A DNA stretch of 64,000 nucleotides from a virus. The translations under genes were made by a program, and so were the position numbers. The stretch spans positions 7,245-71,244 of the IMG/VR virus record IMGVR_UViG_3300037882_002024, one strand, 5' to 3'. The notes under the pieces are model-generated. The model did not search any database. It was not told the origin of the DNA and saw only the letters and a program-made list of their open reading frames with translations. Of this stretch, positions 6,499-47,985 are shown piece by piece (the stretch's first letter is position 1; the number at the start of each line of letters is the position of its first letter).

Positions 6499-7131
6499 AT
6501 GGCCAAGAAAAAGAAAGCCGAAAATGCAGCGCCCGTAGACGCTGTGCAGCCGCCCGCCTTGCCTGCGCTGAACGACCCAAAGTTGGCGCATATCATTGCG
6601 CCCCTGCGTCAATTCGCGGTGCGCGCCGACTCGCTCGTGCATGATCCCACGAACGCGCGCGTTCATGGCGAGCGCAACCTGCAAGCAATCTGCGACTCAC
6701 TGAAGCGCTTCGGGCAGGACCAGCCGCTCGTTGTGCAGCGTCAAGGGATGATTGTTCGCAAGGGGAACGGGCGCCTTGAGGCTGCGCGCGCAATGGGCTG
6801 GGAGTACGTCGCCGCCGTGGTAGTCGAAGAGAGTGATTGGGAAGCTGTGGCGCGCGCGCTGGCCGACAACAGATCGGCAGAGCTAGCGCAATGGGATACC
6901 ACTGTTCTCGGCACCCTGTTCGAGAATCTCAAGCAGCGTGGCGTCAAGCATACCGATCTTGGATGGCAGCCAGAAGAGATTGATATGATTTCCTTCGGAG
7001 CAGGTGGCGCAGAAGGCGATTCGGTTGTACGTGATGCTTCGCCGCCTGACTCGTTCCCCGAAGTTGACGAGAATATCAGGACGGATCATGAGTGCCCGAA
7101 ATGCGGCTACAGGTACTCAGGGGGGATATAG
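6499..7131 (+). CDS. ParB N-terminal-domain protein with C-terminal Zn-ribbon
   Basis: DPTNARVH...SLKRFGQDQPLVV...GNGRLEAARAMGW...ADNRSAELAQWD; ends HECPKCGYRYSG. Confidence 0.8.
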   Translation: MAKKKKAENAAPVDAVQPPALPALNDPKLAHIIAPLRQFAVRADSLVHDPTNARVHGERNLQAICDSLKRFGQDQPLVVQRQGMIVRKGNGRLEAARAMGWEYVAAVVVEESDWEAVARALADNRSAELAQWDTTVLGTLFENLKQRGVKHTDLGWQPEEIDMISFGAGGAEGDSVVRDASPPDSFPEVDENIRTDHECPKCGYRYSGGI

Positions 7132-7133
7132 CT

Positions 7134-8285
7134 ATGAAGCCGCCTTATTCTATTCCGTCTATGAGCGAAATTAAAGCCATTCCGTGGAATGGCTTTAATG
7201 TTGCCTCTACATTTAGCGGCTGTGGTGGATCGTGCCTTGGGTATCGCATGGCTGGCTTTAGGGTTGTGTGGGCAAATGAGTTCGTTCCTATCGCTCAGGA
7301 GTCGTACAGGGCTAATTCCACAACAGATTGTTTTTTGGATTGCCGAGATATTAAGCTAGTAAGGCCAGATGATATTTTGCGCCAGACAGGAATTAAAGTC
7401 GGAGAGCTTGATTTGTTTGATGGATCGCCGCCATGTCAAGCGTTCAGCAACGCTGGAGCGCGCGAGAAAGGGTGGGGCAGGAAGAAGAAGTACGAGCATG
7501 GCGCCCAGCAGTGTAACGAGCAGCTTTTTGACGAATATATCCGCTTGCTTCGCGGCTTGCAGCCGAAAGTTTTTGTTGCAGAAAATGTTGCAGGTCTTGT
7601 GCGCGGGACAGCGAAAGGGTTTTTTCTTGACATCCTCAAGAAGCTGAAAGATTCTGGCTATGTAGTATCTTGCAAAGTTCTTGATGCGCAGTGGTTAGGG
7701 GTTCCGCAAACTCGCCAGCGAGTTATTTTTGTTGGTGTCCGTTGCGACTTGGGTCTTTCGCCAAAGCACCCAGCTCCATTATCGTATCAGTACACAATTC
7801 GCGACGCATTGCCGTGGATTGTTAAATCTACATATGACACCAAGGGAATCTTTAGGGTCAAAGAGACCGCAAATAGTCCACACCCGTGTATTACGTGCTC
7901 TAATATGTATCATTTTGAAATAGAGGCAGAAACAGACATTTCCCGCTTTGCAATTGGCAAGGAGTGGGATAAAATTAAAGCTGGCGAGGCGAGCGAAAAA
8001 TACTTCTCTCTCATAAAGGCGCATCCAGATCGTCCGTCGCCGTGTATTTTGGCAAGCCACGGACAGCCCGGAATTGCCAGTGTCGTTCATCCGACAGAGA
8101 AGAGAAAGTTTACCATTGCCGAAGTAAAGCAAATATGTTCTTTCCCTCAAGACTTTAAGTTAGCTGGTAGTTATGCGCAGCAATGGGAGCGCCTCGGAAA
8201 TAGTGTTCCGCCATTGATGGCGTTTCGAGTTGCGGAAGTTGTCCGCGATGAGATACTGGCAAAGGCAGGAAAGCATGCCAATTAA
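7134..8285 (+). CDS. DNA (cytosine-5)-methyltransferase
   Basis: Motif I FSGCGG, IV DGSPPCQAFS, VI AENV, VIII QTRQRVIFVG, X LGNSVPP. Confidence 0.95.
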   Translation: MKPPYSIPSMSEIKAIPWNGFNVASTFSGCGGSCLGYRMAGFRVVWANEFVPIAQESYRANSTTDCFLDCRDIKLVRPDDILRQTGIKVGELDLFDGSPPCQAFSNAGAREKGWGRKKKYEHGAQQCNEQLFDEYIRLLRGLQPKVFVAENVAGLVRGTAKGFFLDILKKLKDSGYVVSCKVLDAQWLGVPQTRQRVIFVGVRCDLGLSPKHPAPLSYQYTIRDALPWIVKSTYDTKGIFRVKETANSPHPCITCSNMYHFEIEAETDISRFAIGKEWDKIKAGEASEKYFSLIKAHPDRPSPCILASHGQPGIASVVHPTEKRKFTIAEVKQICSFPQDFKLAGSYAQQWERLGNSVPPLMAFRVAEVVRDEILAKAGKHAN

Positions 8286-14724: not shown

Positions 14725-15009
14725 ATGACTGAGGAAGAGGAAGCGCGCGAGTATGTTATTGGCGTCTCGATTATAGTGGCCATTTCAACGGCCGTCCTGT
14801 GGGCGTTCAAGATTTCGAGCGTTGACGATATTATGCCTTGGTGGATGGCCTCTATTATTGCTATCTTGTGGCTGGCCTGCGTGGGGATTTTCTGGCTGCA
14901 AGAGATTGGCCCAAAGATTTTTTTGTGCTGCGTGCGCTGTGCCGTGGCTTGCTCTGGCGAACAGGTTGCTCGGGCACTCGTTTCGATGGTTCGATCAAGG
15001 AGAGACTAA
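14725..15009 (+). CDS. small membrane protein
   Basis: GAGGG RBS; two predicted TM segments. Confidence 0.5.
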   Translation: MTEEEEAREYVIGVSIIVAISTAVLWAFKISSVDDIMPWWMASIIAILWLACVGIFWLQEIGPKIFLCCVRCAVACSGEQVARALVSMVRSRRD

Positions 15010-15173
15010 TGACCTTGGCGCAAACGGATAACTCTGGATGGTCGTGCGCTGCTGCTGTGATAGTGCTTATCGTCTGTTGTGCGGCGTATTCTATTTACAA
15101 TCGCCGATGCGAGATGAAAGAGCGCACATGGGAAGCCAACGAGAAGCGGCGCAAAGATCGCGGGGCAAAGTAA
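15009..15173 (+). CDS. small single-TM protein
   Basis: TAATG coupling; TM then basic tail. Confidence 0.45.
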   Translation: MTLAQTDNSGWSCAAAVIVLIVCCAAYSIYNRRCEMKERTWEANEKRRKDRGAK

Positions 15174-15179
15174 GTTTAG

Positions 15180-15308
15180 CCCAGAGGCGACGGGGATGGC
15201 GACCCGTTACGATGCCAAGCAGAGATGCACTACGCGATCAGGCGGGCGCTGCAAGTCTGTGCGTTAGCGGGTAAAGGTGCAAGCCGGTTCGATTCCGGCC
15301 CTTTGGGA
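15180..15308 (+). ncRNA. tRNA-like RNA with 8-bp acceptor stem and enlarged central domain
   Basis: CCCAGAGG(15180)/CCTTTGGG(15300) acceptor; D-like arm GACGGG/CCCGTT; canonical T-arm GCCGG-TTCGATT-CCGGC; about 74 nt replace the anticodon/variable arms; intergenic. Confidence 0.6.
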
Positions 15309-15379
15309 TGCCGCAATGACGCGGCGACAGCGCGCAAGCGCTGCAAGCAATATGCGCGCAAGCGCAGAAAGGTTATGCG

Positions 15380-15838
15380 ATGAAGAGTTTTCTGATGGCG
15401 ACGGCAATGCTGCTGTTGGCAGGTTATGCCACGGCACAAGAGAAGCCAGAGCCGAAGTTGGTGCCGATGTTGCCCGCGACGAATCCCGACAAGGTTGAGC
15501 CGAAGGCGCTCGATGTCGTGGGCGTGCAAGTTGTCAATGGCGTGTGTTTGATTTTCGATCCCGCCGACAATGGCGTGTTCCGCGTTCCGGCCACGGACCA
15601 CAAAGGCATCGAAAGCGTGCGCGCGCATATCGCCAAGAAGAAGGCCACGGGCGAAGTGACGGTGTACGTGGAGCAACAAGCGGCCTGCGCGGGCGGCGTC
15701 TGTGCAGTCCAAAGCCAGACCACCTGCGTCGGCGGGCAATGCGGCCAAGTGACGCAGCCTCTCGGTAACATCGTCACGCAGCCGTTGCGTGTGATTCAGC
15801 AAGCATGCCCGAATGGCCGGTGCCCTAACCCGCGCTAA
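15380..15838 (+). CDS. exported protein with Cys-pair-rich C-terminus
   Basis: Signal peptide (ATA-Q); CAGGVC...CVGGQC...CPNGRCP. Confidence 0.65.
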   Translation: MKSFLMATAMLLLAGYATAQEKPEPKLVPMLPATNPDKVEPKALDVVGVQVVNGVCLIFDPADNGVFRVPATDHKGIESVRAHIAKKKATGEVTVYVEQQAACAGGVCAVQSQTTCVGGQCGQVTQPLGNIVTQPLRVIQQACPNGRCPNPR

Positions 15839-21214: not shown

Positions 21215-22063
21215 ATGGCAGCCCACGATATTTTGGACGCGCCCGATGTCGAGAAGGAAGTGCCGGAAGGCATCATCGACGACGGCGTATGCAACGAGTA
21301 TCACGAGAACGGCAAGCGTTGTCGGCGGCGTTGCATGCGTGGGGAGTTCTACTGTAAGACTCATTCTAATGTGCCGCGCAGGCAGCAAAAAACGTATATG
21401 TACTCGAAGCACTTGCCGACGCACTTGCGTAACGCGTACAAGCGCATTGCGGAGTCGGGCGACCTGCTAACGCATCAGCACGATATTGCACTGATGCAAG
21501 TGCGCTGCAATGAGCTAGCAGGGCGCTTGGCCAGTGGGGAGAGTAACGACCGCTGGCACAGTCTGCGCGAACAGTTCGAGCGCTTCCGCAATGCGAATCG
21601 GATGATGGGTTCCCCGGACGAGGCCACGCGCCAGCAGGCAGCGGTAGAGCAGCGTGAGGCTCTGCAGGCCGTTGACCAAATTATTTCGTCAGGCGTCGCT
21701 GATGAAGCTAATTGGGATGACCTGCAAAACGCGATTAGCTTCAAGAGTGAATTGCAAGCCAAGGAGTGGAAGCGCCTGCGTGAGATGCAAGCCGTGGCCA
21801 CTGCTGAGCAGGTGCGCACCCTCGTGTTCGCTATCACCACCAGCGTGCTGCGCAACGTCCCCGACGCGAATCAGCGACGCGCTATCGTGACCGATATTAT
21901 GACGCTGCGCGTGTTCGACGTGTCGATTGCGTCACCGTTTCCCGAAGGCATGACTAACGATGGCCGACAAGGTAAGCCGCCAGCGGACAATCAACGAGAT
22001 TCTCAACCCATCGGAGACGCCCGACCCGCTGGGCAGCCCGATGATGGCGCAGCTACTCAATGA
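21215..22063 (+). CDS. putative terminase small subunit
   Basis: GGGAG RBS; N-terminal Cys/His cluster (C...CRRRC...YCKTH) then helical body; immediately upstream of and overlapping TerL. Confidence 0.55.
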   Translation: MAAHDILDAPDVEKEVPEGIIDDGVCNEYHENGKRCRRRCMRGEFYCKTHSNVPRRQQKTYMYSKHLPTHLRNAYKRIAESGDLLTHQHDIALMQVRCNELAGRLASGESNDRWHSLREQFERFRNANRMMGSPDEATRQQAAVEQREALQAVDQIISSGVADEANWDDLQNAISFKSELQAKEWKRLREMQAVATAEQVRTLVFAITTSVLRNVPDANQRRAIVTDIMTLRVFDVSIASPFPEGMTNDGRQGKPPADNQRDSQPIGDARPAGQPDDGAATQ

Positions 22064-24968
22064 ATTTTGCTCGATGATCGAGCCGCCCAGCGAAGAGCTT
22101 CTGACGCTGCAGAACAAGTACGAGAACAGTTTCTACGAATTTACCAAGGCCATGTGGCCGATCATCGAGCCTGCGGCCCCGTGGGTCGATGGCTATATCG
22201 TGCAGTGCGAGTGTGAGCATTGGGAAGCCGTCCTACGCGGCGACATCAAGAAGCTCATCATCAATCAACCTCCACGGCATGGGAAGCCCGTGGACGAACG
22301 GGCACTCGTCCTGATGGCCAGCGGCCAAAGGAAGATGCTACGAGATGTTGTTGTTGGCGATGCCGTTATCACTCACAAGGGGCGCGCCAAGAAAGTAACA
22401 GCAGTCTATGAGCAAGGTCTGCTGCCTGTGCTGCGCATCATGACGAACGCCGGGCGGGTAGTGCGCGCTGCATATGACCACCCTTTCCTAACGGCAGATG
22501 GATGGAAGCGCGCCGATCAGCTTCGACTTGGTGATTCTCTGGCCGTGGTGTCGATGTACGGCGGCTTTGATAAGTCATCGGACTATATGACCGATTACGA
22601 GTTCCGCTTGGCTGGCTATTTCATCGGCGACGGTGCCACTAAAATATATAAGTCATCGAGCGCTTGTAGCATCACATGCAAAGACGCTGTCGAAGGCGCT
22701 GACCTTATGGCCTGCGCAGCGGCAATGGGCTTTGCGGTCAACCACACGCCGCGCAACTATCGCTATAACTTTTCAGACGGCGCGCGTAGTTGGTTGCATG
22801 CTGTAGGGATTGCTGGCCACGGCTCGTACACCAAGCGCGTTCCCGAATTTGTTTTCCGTGGCAGCAATGACCAAGTAGCGCAGTTTGTTGGGGCCTACTT
22901 TGCGTGTGATGGTTATGTAAGCGCCAAGGGGCGCGGCCGCGAAAAGAGGATGCGAGAGGATTTAGAGTTTAGCTTTTCGAGTGTCAGTCGTGCGCTTCTT
23001 GAGGACGTGCAGCACTTGCTTGCGCGTCTTGGGATCATGATGCGGCTGCGTGCTAAGCGCCAAAAGATGGCCGATGGATCGAGCTACGACAGTTTTTTGT
23101 TGGTTGCCACCAGCCAAGAAGAGGTTGCTAAATTCGCTGATCGTATTCCCGTTCGGCACACAAAAGCTACGCGGCTTGCCAAAGAGAGGTTTCAGCGACA
23201 GCGCTTTAATGAGGCCTTGCACGCAGACAGCATCGTAGTAATTGAGCCGGACGGCGAAGCCGTTTGTCGGTGCCTGTCAGTGGACGACGATCAAACGTTT
23301 ACGGCAAGCGACCTCGTTGTTCACAACAGCATACGCGCAGCGGTAGCGTTCTGCACGTGGACATGGACGCAGAAGCCGCACTACCGCTTCATTTACGCAA
23401 GCTACTCGGACATGCTGGTAAAGCGGGACAGCATCCGCAGCCGCGACGTTATCCTGCATGAGTGGTATCGCAATTTTTGGGGCAACAAATTCCGGCTGAA
23501 ATACGACCGCAACACGCAGCACGTATTCGAGAATACGCAACGAGGCTTCCGCTTTGCCACCACGCCCGGCGGCGTGGCGACAGGGGAAGGCGCCGAGATT
23601 ATCATTGGCGATGACCTTGTGAGCGCCGAGGGGGCACGCAGCAAAGCCGAGAACGAACTCGTGTACCGCTTCTGGACACAGACGCTCGGTAGCCGCGTGA
23701 ACGATCCATCGAACGTGGCGCGCGTGCTTACCATGCAGCGCTTTAACCGTGCTGACATCGCGGGGCGCATGATCGCCGAGGAGCATGGCTACGAAACGCT
23801 CGTGCTTCCCTTCGAGTGCGAGCGTAAGCGCTACTTCCTGCCGACCAAAGAGAATGCTGTTGACAGGCCCCGTGATGCCATCGTGCCGACGAAGTTGCAG
23901 CTAGCCGACCCGGCCTTGATGGATAACCGCAAGGAAGGCGAGCTATTGTGGCCTGAGCGATTTTCGCCTACGGCGGCGAAAGAGTTCAAGCTGAGTATTG
24001 GGGCAGGCGTTCCGGGACAGCTACAGCAGCGTCCTAGCGCTGAAGGCGGCTCGATTGTGCGCTCGGAGCGCTTCCAGCTATGCTACGAGACGTGGATCGA
24101 CGGTGCGCTGCACTTCGTTCTAGGCGAGGCCACCGAAGACACGCGCCCGCGCGTCGTGAAGGCGTCCGATTGCTTTTGGTTTCAGTGCGCTGATACTGCG
24201 CAGACAGCTACGACGAGTAATGACCCGACTGCTATCGGCACGTTCTGCCGCACGCCGTCCGGGGAGTTGATTGTTTACCACATCTTCTGCGAGCATCTGG
24301 AGTATCCGGACCAATGGCCCGCGATGTGTGAGCTACGCGTGGGACGCGCTGCATGGGACCGCTACAACCAGCGCTGGGCAGTGCGCGGGGCTGCGTTCCC
24401 GTGGCCGTGTCCTTTATCGTGGCAGGGCGTCGAGCCGAAGTCTACCGGGGAAAGCCTTATCCAGACAGCCCGGCGCGTCGGGATTGCCTTGCACCGCTTG
24501 AATGTGTACGCAGGCGACAAGCAGCAGCGTGGCGCGCCATTGGTGATGATGTATGAGCAAGGCATGGTATACCACTTGGCGTCCGGCCCGTGGCGCGTGG
24601 ACATGGAAGAACAGATAAGCGAGTTCCCCAATGCAGCCCACGACGACATCTTCGACATCGTGAGCTACGCGGCGATGGAGTGCCAAACGATGGCGCTTAC
24701 CATCTACAAAGGCGACTTGATTTACAACGCTAGCGTTGGCGAAACAATGGCACGCAATGCCGAAGCGAGCGTACCGGACGTGTTTCGCGACCGTGGAAAT
24801 GAGAGGCGTGATCGGTTGGCCGAGCCGGTCAAAGAGGCTGTGGGCGAAGTCGATGAGATTGCAGCTACACTTGCGGCGCTCGAAGCAGGCTACCAGCGTC
24901 AGCAAGTACAGGCCAACGAGCAGACATCGCCGCTTGACGACATCTTGCGTAGGCTGAATGGTGGCTAA
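21960..24968 (+). CDS. terL: terminase large subunit, intein-containing
   Basis: Walker A NQPPRHGK|S split by intein; YASYS, Walker B IIIGDD, VLTMQR, QQRP, nuclease CADTA and FPNAAHDDIFD; start may be ATG 22041. Confidence 0.95.
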   Translation: MADKVSRQRTINEILNPSETPDPLGSPMMAQLLNEFCSMIEPPSEELLTLQNKYENSFYEFTKAMWPIIEPAAPWVDGYIVQCECEHWEAVLRGDIKKLIINQPPRHGKPVDERALVLMASGQRKMLRDVVVGDAVITHKGRAKKVTAVYEQGLLPVLRIMTNAGRVVRAAYDHPFLTADGWKRADQLRLGDSLAVVSMYGGFDKSSDYMTDYEFRLAGYFIGDGATKIYKSSSACSITCKDAVEGADLMACAAAMGFAVNHTPRNYRYNFSDGARSWLHAVGIAGHGSYTKRVPEFVFRGSNDQVAQFVGAYFACDGYVSAKGRGREKRMREDLEFSFSSVSRALLEDVQHLLARLGIMMRLRAKRQKMADGSSYDSFLLVATSQEEVAKFADRIPVRHTKATRLAKERFQRQRFNEALHADSIVVIEPDGEAVCRCLSVDDDQTFTASDLVVHNSIRAAVAFCTWTWTQKPHYRFIYASYSDMLVKRDSIRSRDVILHEWYRNFWGNKFRLKYDRNTQHVFENTQRGFRFATTPGGVATGEGAEIIIGDDLVSAEGARSKAENELVYRFWTQTLGSRVNDPSNVARVLTMQRFNRADIAGRMIAEEHGYETLVLPFECERKRYFLPTKENAVDRPRDAIVPTKLQLADPALMDNRKEGELLWPERFSPTAAKEFKLSIGAGVPGQLQQRPSAEGGSIVRSERFQLCYETWIDGALHFVLGEATEDTRPRVVKASDCFWFQCADTAQTATTSNDPTAIGTFCRTPSGELIVYHIFCEHLEYPDQWPAMCELRVGRAAWDRYNQRWAVRGAAFPWPCPLSWQGVEPKSTGESLIQTARRVGIALHRLNVYAGDKQQRGAPLVMMYEQGMVYHLASGPWRVDMEEQISEFPNAAHDDIFDIVSYAAMECQTMALTIYKGDLIYNASVGETMARNAEASVPDVFRDRGNERRDRLAEPVKEAVGEVDEIAATLAALEAGYQRQQVQANEQTSPLDDILRRLNGG
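22287..23327 (+). mobile_element. 347-aa intein with LAGLIDADG homing endonuclease (class-3-like, Pro start)
   Basis: Begins PVDERALV right after the Walker A Lys; block B AAYDHPF; LAGYFIGDG and FVGAYFACDG; block F CRCLSV; ends VVHN followed by Ser. Confidence 0.92.
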
Positions 24969-31087: not shown

Positions 31088-31159
31088 GGCTGGGAGAGCG
31101 CAGCCTCGCTACGCTCTGCCACATGGCGCCGGGGCAAAGTTTTTACAATGCTCCGGCGC

Positions 31160-31201
31160 TTAAAAATAATTAGTTGACATCTGCCGAAGTGATGCTAGGA
31201 T
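31160..31201 (+). promoter_or_regulatory. sigma70 promoter of the ncRNA/tRNA locus with box abutting the -35
   Basis: TTAAAAATAATTAG(31160)-TTGACA(31174)-16-TAGGAT with TG extension. Confidence 0.8.
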
Positions 31202-31207
31202 ACTTAC

Positions 31208-31921
31208 ATCAAAGACGCAAGGCCGATGCAAATGTGCTGACAGCTTTGCCGATGAGATGCTCAGGAGTCAGAGTATAACTGACCACGATCTGAGCCGTGC
31301 GTTATTACGGCCCGCCGAGGAACAGGGGCGCACCTTGTCCGCTCTGGAGTCCGAGGGTAAATGACCGCGCGGGAAGGCGTTTAACGAGCGGCGTTGGGAG
31401 TGTTGCTTCGGCAGCACAGCGCCTAAAAAGCATCCGGTGGTGGGAGACCTTAGCGAGAGCTACGAGGCACCTGAAAAACATCCGGCGCGAGAGCGCCTAA
31501 AATATCGGTTGCGTTCTTCTGGTGAACAGGCCAGACCTGTGCATTCCTGCTGCACGAACGCATTTGCGGGCCGTCTTAGCGCTTGTTGGAAACCTGCGCT
31601 ATGGCATTCCTTGGCCCGCACCCCTAAACTGGCTTGGTGTTTTGTTGTAAGGGCGCCAAGTCAGGGGCTGCAAGGAATGGTCATCTTGCAGCCCATTTGA
31701 ACGCTAGCGCGCGAAAGCTCTTGATTGGGCAACGGGAGCAAGTAGCGCGCTAGCTACCTAATACCCTTAAATGGGTAAGGCGAAGGCTTCGGCCTAGCCA
31801 TCACTAGGCCTGTGCGCCGCTCAGACATGACGCACAGACAATCCTAGGCCACCGCAGCAGTCCCTCCGTTTGCTGCGGTGCAAGGTGAAAGGCCTGCTGA
31901 AAGGCTGAGTAACCTTCTTCA
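31208..31921 (+). ncRNA. large, highly structured ncRNA candidate (GOLLD/ROOL-like size and context)
   Basis: No RBS-led ORF; many helices: GTGTTGC-TTCG-GCAGCAC, AGC-GAGA-GCT, GGCGC-GAGA-GCGCC, TGCGGGCC/GGCCCGCA, 12-bp 31630-31663, GGGCTGCAAG/CTTGCAGCCC, GCTAGCGCGC/GCGCGCTAGC with GAA/AGTA internal loop, ACCGCAGCA/TGCTGCGGT; directly upstream of tRNAs. Confidence 0.7.
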
Positions 31922-31995
31922 GTGGCACTTGTGTAAGGGAAACATACCGGCTCGTTAGGCCGGCGATGGGAGTTCGATTCTCTCGTGCCACACCA
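31922..31995 (+). tRNA. tRNA-Asn(GTT) with encoded CCA and atypical C33
   Basis: GTGGCAC/GTGCCAC acceptor, GTGT/ACAT D-stem, CCGGC-TCGTTAG-GCCGG, GGGAG-TTCGATT-CTCTC, ACCA 3' end. Confidence 0.85.
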
Positions 31996-32060
31996 CACAC
32001 GCCGCAGTCGCGGCTCACGATGCTCTGTAAAGGGCGCTCCGCAAGGGGTTGACAACGATG

Positions 32061-32102
32061 CCCGGCTGGTCGGTTTTCGAGGCCAAGGCCAGCCGGGTTT
32101 TT
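32061..32102 (+). terminator. terminator-like hairpin
   Basis: CCCGGCTGGTC...GGCCAGCCGGG followed by T5. Confidence 0.6.
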
Positions 32103-32175
32103 GATGCGATAGCTTAAACGGTAAAGCAACCGCCCTCTAAGCGGCACTACTGAGGTTCGACCCCTCTTCGCATCC
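32103..32175 (+). tRNA. tRNA-Arg(TCT)-like with atypical C33
   Basis: GATGCGA/TCGCATC acceptor, GCTT/AAGC D-stem, CCGC-CCTCTAA-GCGG, GAGG-TTCGACC-CCTC. Confidence 0.75.
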
Positions 32176-32176
32176 T

Positions 32177-32283
32177 ATCCACGAAGCCGGAAACGCGGAC
32201 GCGCGACGTTAGGCACGTTCTGGCCGCAATGCTGGCAGCGGGTTTACGGAACCAATTCGCAGGTGCAACGCCTGCCGTGGATA
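32177..32283 (+). tRNA. tRNA-like RNA (GTT loop) with ~41-nt branched variable region
   Basis: ATCCACG/CGTGGAT acceptor, CCG/CGG D-stem, CGCGC..ACGTTAG..GCACG anticodon-like arm, T-arm GCAGG-TGCAACG-CCTGC. Confidence 0.55.
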
Positions 32284-32285
32284 CT

Positions 32286-32358
32286 GCGCTCTGTGGGCAA
32301 CCGGAGAAGCCGCCCCGCTTAGGTGGGGAGAATGCTGGTTCAATTCCAGCCGGGCGCA
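32286..32358 (+). tRNA. degenerate tRNA-like RNA, anticodon ambiguous (CTTAGG loop)
   Basis: GCGCTC/GGGCGC acceptor with bulge, GGC/GCC D-stem, CCCCG/TGGGG stem with 6-nt loop, GCTGG-TTCAATT-CCAGC. Confidence 0.6.
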
Positions 32359-32366
32359 TTGCAAGT

Positions 32367-32469
32367 AGGGTCGTGCCCGAGTTGTCTAAGGGTGACCGGA
32401 TGCAAGACGCAACCTCTGGCGCACCGGGCCGATAGAGGGTGCGCCACAGGTGCGAATCCTGTCGCCCTG
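32367..32469 (+). tRNA. class-II-like tRNA-like RNA with poorly paired anticodon arm (GCA loop) and long variable stem
   Basis: AGGG/CCCT acceptor extended by GCAAGT/GCTTGC; D-arm TGCCCGAGTTGTCTAAGGG; variable stem TGGCGCACC/GGTGCGCCA; T-arm ACAGG-TGCGAAT-CCTGT. Confidence 0.55.
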
Positions 32470-32488
32470 CTTGCTTTTTAGGTGCATC

Positions 32489-32725
32489 ATGAAGGCCATC
32501 TTTTTGCTCGTAACACTTCTCGGCGCAGGCTGCGCGCAATCCAACCTCGAAGACGCTCAGCGGCGCTGGCAGCCCCAGCATGGTCGCGAGCAAGAGCGCA
32601 AGACGTACACAGTAAAGCGTCGCACGCCATCAGGCGTCATCATCACCTACACCGTGACGCCTAACTACAAGCCGGAAGACTTCAAGCATGCGCGCACCTA
32701 CAAGGTGCCTGTGCGCGCTGACTAA
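32489..32725 (+). CDS. small predicted lipoprotein
   Basis: MKAIFLLVTLLGAGC lipobox; TAA stop in box 32722. Confidence 0.6.
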   Translation: MKAIFLLVTLLGAGCAQSNLEDAQRRWQPQHGREQERKTYTVKRRTPSGVIITYTVTPNYKPEDFKHARTYKVPVRAD

Positions 32726-35077: not shown

Positions 35078-35314
35078 ACTGCCCGCGAAGCCGTCAAGCA
35101 GGACGATGCAGACAGCGCCCTCGTTCGTTTGGCGCGGTGCCTGCTCGTTAAGGCCAAGCCAGCAGGCCTTAACGCGCTGCTTGATGACTACGAACCGATC
35201 TTTATCGACGCCGTCGAGCCTCACGTTGACAGCGTCGCTATCTACGCACACGGCCTCAAGATCATCGTCAAGGCGGCGCTGGTCAGCGAGGCCCCACAGG
35301 AGAAGGCAGTATGA
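35072..35314 (+). CDS. hypothetical protein, start uncertain
   Basis: Open frame beginning at the TTG of the truncated promoter; ends in ATGA overlap with the kinase gene. Confidence 0.4.
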   Translation: MTTAREAVKQDDADSALVRLARCLLVKAKPAGLNALLDDYEPIFIDAVEPHVDSVAIYAHGLKIIVKAALVSEAPQEKAV

Positions 35315-35949
35315 AGCTGATGATCGTAATGCAGGGCGCGCCCGGTAGCGGAAAGTCCACCGAGGCCAAGCGCCTGCAAGCAGAGTTCGGGATCGACGCC
35401 ATCGTGAGCGCTGACGACTACCACACAGGCGCTGACGGAGTTTACCGCTTCGACTATCGGCGTGTCGGGGAGTGCCACGAGAGGGCGCAGAACGCCGCGC
35501 GGCTTCTGATGATGGAGAGCAAGTCGCTCATCGTCGACAACACGAACATATGGGCGTGGGAAGCCAAGCCGTATGTTGTGCCTGCTGTACTCCACGGGTA
35601 TCTTATCGCCTTTGTCCGGTGCCATGAGAATCGACCGAACATTCATGGCGTGCCCGAGGACAAGGTGCGTCAGATGCGAGACAGCATGGAGCCGCTAACT
35701 GTTCAGCACTGCCTTTCGGCGCTGCGGCCAAACTCGGCAGCGTCGGCAATGAAAGCCGCTCGCGAAGGAAGCTACAGCCTTTGCAAGGCTGCTGGCGCTG
35801 CGCTTGGTTCAGGGCCTATTCCGATGCTAAGCGCTCCGGCTGCTGTCATCGGCGAGCCGAGTCCGTACAACTACTCTGCGGCCAAGCTGGCCGAGCAAAG
35901 CTACGCAGGGGGCAAGAGTGAAAATCAGAATGTACCTGATGACGTGTGA
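35311..35949 (+). CDS. P-loop kinase (AAA_33 / polynucleotide kinase-like)
   Basis: MQGAPGSGKST, IVSADDY, SLIVDNTN, NIHGVP. Confidence 0.8.
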   Translation: MKLMIVMQGAPGSGKSTEAKRLQAEFGIDAIVSADDYHTGADGVYRFDYRRVGECHERAQNAARLLMMESKSLIVDNTNIWAWEAKPYVVPAVLHGYLIAFVRCHENRPNIHGVPEDKVRQMRDSMEPLTVQHCLSALRPNSAASAMKAAREGSYSLCKAAGAALGSGPIPMLSAPAAVIGEPSPYNYSAAKLAEQSYAGGKSENQNVPDDV

Positions 35950-46911: not shown

Positions 46912-47228
46912 TCGACCTTGCAGCCTTTCAGCATGCGCACCCATTTGATGTCGCGTCCTACGAGCGGCTTATCGCTCGCGTGGAGTTGTTGCCTTTGCAG
47001 CGCGACGCTGGCGGGGCTGCAGTGATTTTGCACGAGGGCGCCTACACGCCACAGAGGAATAGGCAGACAAAAGCAGTCCGAATGAGGCTGCACAGACTGC
47101 GAGTAACAATCGTCGTGGGCTGCAATGTCTCCGTGGGATCGATCTTGGGCGCCAAGCCGCATACTGATTACAACCCATTGCCGAGATACCTCGATGAAGA
47201 AAAAAGCACAGGCCCCGCAGCAACTTGA
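46908..47228 (+). CDS. hypothetical protein
   Basis: ATGA overlap. Confidence 0.5.
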   Translation: MIDLAAFQHAHPFDVASYERLIARVELLPLQRDAGGAAVILHEGAYTPQRNRQTKAVRMRLHRLRVTIVVGCNVSVGSILGAKPHTDYNPLPRYLDEEKSTGPAAT

Positions 47229-47985
47229 CGCGCTCGCTTACGTGGCGCAGAACGGCGACGTCCCCAAGCTCAGTGATGGCAAGGGGCCGAAGCCGTGGCA
47301 CTATCGCGGCTGGCTCGTGCCTTACATCTCGCAGATTGATGATCGGTTTTGGGGGCGCTACCGTTACCACAAAGACACGATTGAGGCCGGACGCCTGCTA
47401 GATGCCCCGATCCCGCGAATTGCGTTTAGCCGTCGTGCCACCGATGTTACCAAGCATCTTAACGAGTGCTGTCGGCTGATCGGCTACGACAACGGCGGCT
47501 GGGGCGACTTTACGCGCCTGCTCGAATGGCTGTGCTTTGCGGTGCGCGCATCCTCTGACTATCCACGGCATATCGACGAAAAGGCGCAAGAGGCCTTATA
47601 TCGCAAGCTCAACGTCGGGCCGATGATTCAGCAGCCCTACGACTATCTTGGCGATTGGGTTGCAGAGCGCATCGGAAGCGGCTCGTGGAACCCCAACGCG
47701 TTCTTCCCGACGCCGCACGAGGTGGTCGAATTGATGGTGCAAATGCAGATGGGGCAAGGGGAAGACCTGCGCGCGAAGACAGTGTGCGACCCCTGCACAG
47801 GCTCGGGCCGCATGCTCATGCACGCGAGCAATTACTCGCTGCGGCTGTACGGCATTGATATTGACCCGATTGCGGTGGCAATGTGTAAAATAAATGCGGC
47901 GCTTTACGTTCCGTGGCTGGCCTTCCCGATTCCTGATGCTTTCTTTGTGCAGCGCTATCGAGAGTCGTGCAGTATCTTTTGGTGA
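47194..47985 (+). CDS. N6-methylase-like protein retaining only the SAM-binding half
   Basis: FFPTPHEVVELM, VCDPCTGSGRML, LYGIDID..AVAMCKIN; ends before any NPP(Y/F) catalytic motif. Confidence 0.7.
   Translation: MKKKAQAPQQLDALAYVAQNGDVPKLSDGKGPKPWHYRGWLVPYISQIDDRFWGRYRYHKDTIEAGRLLDAPIPRIAFSRRATDVTKHLNECCRLIGYDNGGWGDFTRLLEWLCFAVRASSDYPRHIDEKAQEALYRKLNVGPMIQQPYDYLGDWVAERIGSGSWNPNAFFPTPHEVVELMVQMQMGQGEDLRAKTVCDPCTGSGRMLMHASNYSLRLYGIDIDPIAVAMCKINAALYVPWLAFPIPDAFFVQRYRESCSIFW

Follow-up and report, generated by a model that had tools for sequence, protein, structure and literature searches.

Five small structured genes lie head to tail on the + strand of the genome of an uncultured phage, in the order tRNA-Asn, tRNA-Arg, and elements A, B, and C, and the question raised by this locus is what the last three of them are: tRNA genes in decay, tRNAs of an unorthodox kind, or RNAs that retain part of the tRNA fold for some other use. 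The source is an 87.7-kb IMG/VR virus record (IMGVR_UViG_3300037882_002024) from a tailed phage whose gene-dense genome encodes a terminase, a portal protein, and a capsid protein. All coordinates refer to the window, by which we mean the whole stretch of 64,000 nucleotides analyzed here (positions 7,245 to 71,244 of the record). An earlier note, written from the letters of the window, had proposed that the three elements and a fourth one near position 15180 (element D) combine an intact tRNA elbow with a remodeled decoding end. We find that this observation is largely right and that a non-random remodeling that spares the top half of the tRNA is modestly supported, and several of the particulars are revised below.

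The array and its genomic setting

The first two members of the array are true tRNA genes according to both ARAGORN and Rfam. tRNA-Asn(GUU) (31922..31995, + strand) is a canonical cloverleaf with an encoded CCA end and scores 48.9 bits, and tRNA-Arg(UCU) (32103..32175, + strand), which is also canonical, scores 49.5 bits. Both carry C33, at 31953 and 32135, respectively, and tRNA-Arg has in addition C73 at 32175; these odd bases are compatible with decay and with adaptation alike. The spacer between the two genes ends in a terminator-like hairpin, CCCGGCTGG/CCAGCCGGG (32061-32097), followed by a T5 tract. This feature (32061..32102, + strand), which abuts the 5' end of tRNA-Arg, was read from the sequence, having been missed by the promoter/terminator scan because the hairpin loop exceeds 8 nt. 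U-tracts are present 3' of the Asn-Arg spacer hairpin and 3' of element C. Packing is tight from tRNA-Arg onward, with gaps of only 0-1 nt between tRNA-Arg and A and between A and B.

The promoter scan places a sigma-70-like promoter (TTGACA, 16 nt, TAGGAT with TG) at 31174..31201 on the + strand, where it precedes a stretch of non-coding hairpins and then the array of tRNA genes. Another match covers 31142-31170, and beyond 31142-31201 the scan finds no promoter-like site until 32755. Directly 3' of element C is a small lipoprotein-like ORF of 78 aa (MKAIFLLVTLLGAGC..., 32489..32725, + strand), for which neither a promoter of its own nor, in the protein search, any homologue was found. Element D (15180..15308, + strand) is flanked by two small ORFs for membrane/secreted proteins (14838-15173 and 15371-15802).

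Other genes of this phage also bear on RNA metabolism or on host defense. A P-loop kinase of 212 aa (35311-35949), located 2.8 kb downstream of the array, is PNK-like (AAA_33, 1e-11; phrog_505, 1.4e-9), and it is all that was recognized in the phage genome in a search that included RNA ligase, RtcB, CCA-adding enzyme, and peptidyl-tRNA hydrolase. The large terminase gene (21960-24968, 1002 aa) holds an intein with a LAGLIDADG homing endonuclease at approximately residues 142-456. Moreover, one of 62 scanned ORFs matches the Acb3 CBASS-inhibitor domain (3.9e-18), and a C5 cytosine methylase (7092-8285) and an N6 methylase (47125-47985) are encoded, so that the phage carries counter-defense genes.

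Anatomy of elements A to D

Element A (32176..32284, + strand) is closed by a perfect 8-bp acceptor helix, in which TATCCACG (32176-83) pairs with CGTGGATA (32276-83), and has the T arm GCAGG-TGCAACG-CCTGC, with G at position 55; pairing probabilities for the acceptor and the T arm are about 1 in the folding ensemble. In the minimum-energy fold, the 75 nt between these two helices are taken up by two hairpins, a long irregular one (32186-32236) and a small one (32241-32253). When compared with shuffled sequences, folding of A is favored on the + strand (z = -2.35) and close to expectation on the - strand (z = -0.27). No convincing D arm was found in A, a 3-bp option lying 2.1 kcal/mol above the minimum-energy fold, and an anticodon arm with a 5-bp stem and a 7-nt loop does not occur among all of its hairpins listed. 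The octamer CGUUAGGC is common to A and tRNA-Asn at the same offset from the 5' end, which suggests that A was probably derived from an Asn-type tRNA.

Element B (32285..32359, + strand; tool-called span 32286-32358) is a near-canonical class I tRNA that narrowly passes the Rfam tRNA model (30.2 bits compared to a gathering score of 29 for RF00005). Its anticodon arm, CCCCG-CUUAGG-UGGGG, has a 6-nt loop, one base short, exactly as had been described, and both ARAGORN and Rfam agree on this point; the loop grows to 8 nt if the G.U pair is opened. A U.C mismatch adjoins the T stem, U(-1) can pair with A73, and ARAGORN draws the element as an 8/4 tRNA with the label 'Stop|Leu (ta)'.

Element C has its core at 32365-32471 and, with an outer extension, occupies 32361..32479 on the + strand. 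The acceptor is GTAGGGT/GCCCTGC, to which the flanks GCAA/TTGC add 4 bp, giving a closing helix of 11 bp that is followed by a T5 tract at 32475-32479. Its D arm, GCCC-GAGTTGTCTAA-GGGT, is of the Ser type (class II), and a T-arm-like hairpin, ACAGG-TGCGAAT-CCTGT, carries G55. The unpaired anticodon arm previously ascribed to C depends on the register chosen, as a 17-nt hairpin with a 5-nt loop, GGAUGC-AAGAC-GCAACC, occupies this place, while the variable stem, given earlier as 9 bp, is indeed found as a hairpin of 8-9 bp (32418-25/32439-46). Although C has the strongest departure from shuffled sequences (z = -4.15), its T arm has a probability of about 0 in the folding ensemble, where the strands favor a rod of about 23 bp together with the variable arm, and the cloverleaf is computed at -44.5 kcal/mol compared to -50.6 kcal/mol for the best predicted fold. 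Because the T arm is out-competed by the rod in these folding models, the elbow of C is uncertain. ARAGORN calls nothing on the isolated element; only at lowered thresholds (-i -ps) is C called, as Cys-GCA with a 17-nt intron, among 7 spurious calls.

Element D has an 8-bp acceptor (CCCAGAGG/CCTTTGGG) and a canonical T arm (GCCGG-TTCGATT-CCGGC), and so the proposal that the element at 15180 follows the same pattern is confirmed, with the folding probability of the T arm being only 0.38. A 6-bp D-like stem with an 8-nt loop and a central rod of about 55 nt make up the remainder. D folds better than shuffled sequences on the + strand only (z = -1.62), and its best match to the tRNA-Sec model is local and reaches 13.5 bits, compared to a gathering score of 47.

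An acceptor helix and a 5-bp T stem are common to all four elements, as is a T loop that keeps G53-C61, U54, C56, and A58. In addition, a pair between positions -1 and 73 is possible in A, B, C, and D (U-A, U-A, G-C, and C-G, respectively), giving eight acceptor layers plus five T-stem pairs; the 8-layer acceptor is perfect in A and D, and its innermost layer is a pyrimidine-pyrimidine mismatch in B and C. In neither tRNA-Asn nor tRNA-Arg can the -1:73 pair form. The presence of this pair in 4 of 4 irregular elements is suggestive of a common design, the chance of such a distribution being about 0.02 in a comparison of only six genes. We also scanned both strands of the 87.7-kb genome for a strict version of the motif, in which a 7-bp acceptor immediately follows a T stem of 5 bp whose loop reads U-N-C-R-A, in spans of 66-140 nt. 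The only matches are tRNA-Asn, A, and D, all on the + strand, compared with 0.49 +/- 0.67 in dinucleotide-shuffled genomes. The 7-bp acceptor and 5-bp T stem are thus strictly present in A and D, and B and C each have one pyrimidine-pyrimidine mismatch beside the T stem.

The decoding end presents a different picture. When stretches of about 120-190 nt containing A, C, and D were searched with Rfam, no match to the tRNA (RF00005) or tRNA-Sec (RF01852) model was obtained even at E <= 10, and when all hairpins in these three elements were listed, none was a credible anticodon arm with a 5-bp stem, a 7-nt loop, U33, and a purine at position 37. Elements A to D are tRNA-derived genes that cannot decode by normal rules, and the data support a pattern common to the four elements in which the acceptor/T stack is kept and a non-decoding body has been rebuilt. 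The more specific claim that acceptor, D, and T arms are all retained holds for the acceptor and T arms of A and D, but not for the D arm of A, which is unconvincing, or for the T arm of C, which is disfavored in folding; the "intact elbow" is accordingly uncertain in A, with no clear D arm, and in C, with its T arm out-competed in silico. It is also doubtful that the face recognized by EF-Tu and T-box RNAs is preserved, since A to D can form 8 + 5 layers, a geometry that is tied to EF-Tu rejection in tRNA-Sec. Finally, the T-GCA-AG motif that had been taken to link C and D means little, because TGCAAG is abundant in this genome: the hexamer occurs 82 times on the + strand compared to 46 +/- 7 expected (an excess of about 1.8-fold), whereas its complement CTTGCA shows no excess (41 vs 41), and the link is not significant.

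Several known kinds of element were considered and rejected. ARAGORN calls no tmRNA, for which the elements would in any case be too short, and a G3.U70 pair is absent; nor is there a match to YrlA/Y-RNA or to other Rfam families. Also rejected were a repeated insert and, outside the T arm, a paralogous relationship of A, C, and D to one another. A D-arm half transposed to a position after a normal anticodon arm does not describe B, C, and D, in which the D arms are in the normal place, or A, where a D stem would find no normal anticodon arm to surround. An attP remnant was rejected on the grounds that both acceptor strands are present and that no integrase was found in the genome.

Close relatives and the G55 T loop

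Public sequencing runs contain close relatives of this phage, from which we obtained two informative contigs. The contig from run X12 (269 nt, depth 5.4, about 95% identical) spans tRNA-Arg, A, and half of B. It lacks the block 31921-32101, position 31920 being joined to 32102 with a single C between them; the missing block, a precise indel, consists of tRNA-Asn and the 107-nt spacer ending in the terminator-like hairpin and T5. With the Asn block absent from one relative, the array is in flux. There are 10 differences in this contig, 8 of which are listed for tRNA-Arg and A, and none of these eight breaks a helix (0/8). The four listed for tRNA-Arg are at positions 33 (U), 57, 60, and 73 (A), all unpaired; the presence of U33 and A73 in the relative implies that C33 and C73 of tRNA-Arg are recent changes in the phage studied here. 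In element A, 32178 T>G is accompanied by 32281 A>C, so that the third acceptor pair changes from U-A to G-C, which is compensatory, and the other two changes are unpaired. When A is refolded with the single changes, energies of -41.2 or -40.4 kcal/mol are obtained and three acceptor pairs open in each case, compared to -44.7 kcal/mol for the sequence of the window; with both changes the fold is the same, at -46.1 kcal/mol.

The contig from run X7 (221 nt, depth 2.5) spans 32282-32480, which comprises B and C (199 nt), with 4 differences. Two of these are listed, both in C, one being located in a bulge and the other, 32439 G>A, weakening the loop end of the variable hairpin; among the differences listed, none falls within 32320-32358 of B. 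The contig diverges in the 10 nt before the ATG of the next gene. Runs X1 and X3 yield only identical 151-nt pieces, and one X7 piece (32040-32075) looks unrelated. The changes in these contigs would match the outcome expected of selection on structure, for which the evidence is thin, coming as it does from few events in very close relatives at low depth. An even spread of mutations over all arms, as in neutral pseudogenes, had been named as the outcome that would count against functional elements, and the limited data from relatives argue against it through the compensatory pair in A and the lack of broken helices (0 of 8), to the extent that two short contigs can do so. Because the relatives appear to keep the shape of the elements, these look like working RNAs rather than plain debris.

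Searches of larger collections add little to this comparison. A blastn search with the array against 50,697 GenBank phage records gave no match, and searches for related loci using the 348-aa neighbor and the terminase gave nothing useful in IMG/VR or in the genome collection. The capsid protein gave nothing useful in the genome collection, and its only matches in IMG/VR were three short contigs that lack tRNAs. DNA patterns for A, C, paired G55 T arms, the D arm of C, and tRNA-Arg retrieved no relatives from IMG/VR or JGI metagenomes, and the 15-mer of the C D loop matched in coding DNA only. The 348-aa neighbor has relatives of only 38-46% identity, in phages that have a different gene order and lack such elements.

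In A and C, a G replaces the near-universal U55 of the T loop. The exact T arm of C occurs in 61 IMG/VR stretches, which represent 28 distinct contexts, and ARAGORN calls a tRNA in 22 of the 28. At least five isotypes (Gly, Met/Ile-CAT, Leu, Pro, and Arg) are found among tRNAs with a G55 T arm, one example, with the loop UGCGAAU, being located in IMG/VR stretch L012:11675-11750. As G55 is common in called phage tRNAs, we take it as a working variant of the elbow and not as a sign of decay. Most of the phage tRNAs with this T arm have AG or UAG in the D loop instead of the usual GG, and lack the usual G18 (AGUAGUAG and similar); the D loop of C has UUG at the place of the Ser-type UGG. These sequences suggest that, in phage tRNAs, the G55 T loop and a D loop lacking G18 co-vary as an alternative form of the elbow. 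This G55 T arm is also present in IMG/VR stretch L032:3220-3300, which is ARAGORN-negative and has an acceptor, AGGCAGT/ATTGCCT, and a hairpin, AGGAG-CCAA-CTCCT; this element is possibly an anticodon-less mini-tRNA in another phage.

Possible roles and known counterparts

Taking the anatomy of the elements, their inability to decode by normal rules, their tight packing, and the structure-preserving change in a relative as the observations to be explained, we infer co-transcription, processing, stability, and any further role. The reading that we tentatively prefer, at slightly less than even odds, is that A to C are co-transcribed, matured like tRNAs, and function as stable non-decoding RNAs that double as processing punctuation. 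One operon would extend from the promoter near 31174 through the hairpin RNA, tRNA-Asn, tRNA-Arg, A, B, and C to the U-tract. RNase P and the CCA-adding enzyme need no more of a substrate than the acceptor/T stack, and in the packed dimeric tRNA precursors of T4 the RNase P cut at the 5' end of one element creates the 3' end of the previous one. RNase P cleavage at the 5' end of each element in the present array would likewise free the 3' end of its upstream neighbor, given that tRNA-Arg, A, and B abut (0-1 nt). The part that is kept would be the stack read by RNase P, RNase Z, and the CCA-adding enzyme, and the rebuilt part would be that read by the ribosome; it is this division that leads us to read A to C as tRNA-like non-decoding RNAs with a second role as punctuation. 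The elements would be excised like tRNAs and would persist as stable, tRNA-shaped RNAs that do not decode. The RNAs served by such punctuation would be tRNA-Arg, the mRNA 3' of C, and, in the case of D, which may also be processing punctuation between its two ORFs, the mRNAs on both sides. By analogy with tRNA-Sec, the 8 + 5 geometry would exclude the RNAs from A to D from translation. Counting against this preferred reading is the closing helix of C, which runs 4 bp into the leader and trailer and is not ideal for RNase P. Further points against it are the low folding probabilities of the T arms of C and D, the weakening of the C variable hairpin by 32439 G>A, the flux of the array, the odd bases of both true tRNAs, and the fact that, apart from the PNK-like kinase, no enzyme for tRNA processing or repair was recognized in the phage genome.

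It is quite possible, though in our view less likely, that A to C are neutral relics, dead tRNA genes that have so far escaped deletion: A as a former copy of tRNA-Asn, B as a tRNA that lost 1 nt from its loop, and C as a tRNA of the Ser type. Their conservation would then reflect no more than the close kinship of the phages sampled. Descent from tRNAs is clear (the octamer of A and tRNA-Asn, the Ser-type D arm of C, and the 30.2 bits of B), the array gains and loses units, as seen in the absence of the Asn block from X12, and C33 in tRNA-Arg and tRNA-Asn and C73 in tRNA-Arg contrast with U33 and A73 in the tRNA-Arg of the relative. In addition, no relatives diverged by more than about 5%, on which constraint could be assessed, were found in IMG/VR, JGI metagenomes, or the genome collection. 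Decay would not readily yield the compensatory pair in A, however, or leave all stems unbroken by the eight listed changes in tRNA-Arg and A, and the structured insertions of 35-40 nt in A and C, which fold better than shuffled sequences only or mainly on the + strand, are unusual for decaying genes. Retention in all four elements of G53-C61, U54, C56, A58, and the -1:73 pair also argues against relics, as do the compactness of phage genomes in general and the gene density of this one. We think it distinctly unlikely, though compatible with all of the observations, that the elements act as decoys or sponges for host defenses that target tRNAs, such as anticodon nucleases, or for other tRNA-binding proteins. 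Such RNAs would present a tRNA body without an anticodon loop that could be cleaved or decoded. The top half of the tRNA is kept with a rebuilt decoding end, the array promoter is of the same type as those of many small early orphan genes, and other counter-defense genes are present (the Acb3 domain and the DNA methylases). Yet the anticodon loop, the part that most known anticodon nucleases recognize, is missing from these elements, and no conserved motif marks a common partner, TGCAAG not being significant. C33 in both real tRNAs would fit a change of loop base directed against anticodon nucleases (PMC10264068), but this idea of nuclease evasion suits C33 better than it suits A, C, and D. 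A related reading to which we give an equally small likelihood is that 13-layer, tRNA-shaped RNAs, processed and tagged with CCA like tRNAs but kept off EF-Tu and the ribosome, serve as dedicated mimics, titrating or diverting factors of the host that bind tRNA (defense tRNases, for example, or modification or surveillance enzymes).

Finally, the elements might be working tRNAs of non-canonical form, B acting as an ochre suppressor (with UUA following C33) or causing frameshifts, and C or D a Ser/Sec-like tRNA or an intron-bearing Cys tRNA with a GCA anticodon. The 'Stop|Leu' label that ARAGORN gives to B, the score of B above the Rfam tRNA threshold, the Cys-GCA call with a 17-nt intron that ARAGORN makes for C when introns and lowered thresholds are allowed, and the existence of irregular 8/4 and 9/3 tRNAs in phages and bacteria (PMC5389517) all point in this direction. 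We nevertheless judge it highly improbable. TAA is the commonest stop codon (52 of 125) and the genes are intact in the standard code, for which reason suppression of TAA by B was rejected. An intron-bearing tRNA-Cys was also rejected for C: the call stands among 7 plainly spurious ones, removal of the intron destroys the strong 8-bp variable hairpin, bacteria have no splicing system for introns of this sort, and a group I intron would be far longer than the inserts. A, C, and D, moreover, match neither the tRNA nor the tRNA-Sec model, and they contain no hairpin with a 5-bp stem and a 7-nt loop bearing U33 and a purine at 37.

The locus is a clear case, in that four elements of one design are found beside two true tRNAs with unusual bases in the anticodon loop. 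If they are processed and under selection, the elements would be either cheap RNA-processing punctuation or effector RNAs acting against host tRNA-handling proteins. An effector role, if true, would add an RNA layer to phage counter-defense, and if the mimic reading is true, "non-decoding tRNA mimics" would be a general, unstudied class of phage effector RNAs.

Additional RNAs encoded in the tRNA cluster of T4 have been seen since the 1970s, and the species I and II RNAs of this phage (RNA C and D) have tRNA-like ends and are matured with the tRNAs, although we know of no function for them. The T4 cluster is transcribed into a precursor that yields eight tRNAs together with the species I and II RNAs, and the transcript ends past the species I gene (PMC2330249). 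The likeness to the present array lies in the presence of small non-tRNA RNAs in line with phage tRNAs, for which the layout alone (an upstream promoter and a U-tract after C) is compatible here. The blastn search with the array shows no sequence similarity to species I and II, however, and the elements described here are plainly derived from tRNAs: they have T loops and share an acceptor of 8 layers, and B and C each have a D arm. Mukai et al. 2016 reported irregular tRNA polycistrons and allo-tRNAs with longer acceptors, long variable arms, extra loops, and five-stem junctions; they noted that some irregular tRNAs are inactive in translation and proposed these to be regulatory RNAs, and that 8/4 tRNAs occur in phage tRNA clusters (PMC5389517). 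An allo-tRNA combines a branch of 12 bp, divided 8/4 or 9/3, with a D arm like that of tRNA-Sec, a long V arm, and a functional anticodon loop of the usual 7 nt (PMC5389517). Of these traits, the 8/4 drawing is seen only for B, the long V arm only in C, and the 7-nt loop in none of the elements; compared to allo-tRNA and SelC* tRNA-Cys, the branch has 13 layers (8 + 5), the inserts are much larger, and a normal anticodon arm is lacking.

With tRNA-Sec (RF01852), whose unusual structure goes with rejection by EF-Tu (reviewed in PMC7609411), the elements share the 13-layer 8/5 branch, and C in particular shares the long variable arm and D the 6-bp D stem. They differ from it in giving no model match, in having no UCA anticodon and no 6-bp anticodon stem, and in their lengths of 107-129 nt, and the D loop of element D is 8 nt rather than the tetraloop of the tRNA-Sec D stem. 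Among the points made by Forner et al. 2007 (PMC1920247) is that plant mitochondrial t-elements, tRNA-like structures beside mRNAs, are processing signals for RNase P and RNase Z. To that extent, the location of D between two ORFs and that of C directly before one are reminiscent of t-elements as portrayed there, although these belong to another domain of life with other machinery, and processing is inferred for the phage elements. van den Berg et al. 2023 describe phage tRNAs with altered anticodon-loop bases and propose that they escape anticodon nucleases (PMC10264068). Such loop changes on an intact body fit C33 of tRNA-Asn and tRNA-Arg, and perhaps B; those tRNAs still decode, however, whereas A, C, and D are without an anticodon loop. 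Extra tRNA-like RNAs in phage tRNA operons are a known kind of RNA, and within it A to D, which belong to no described family, are set apart by their unusual, anticodon-less 8 + 5 design.
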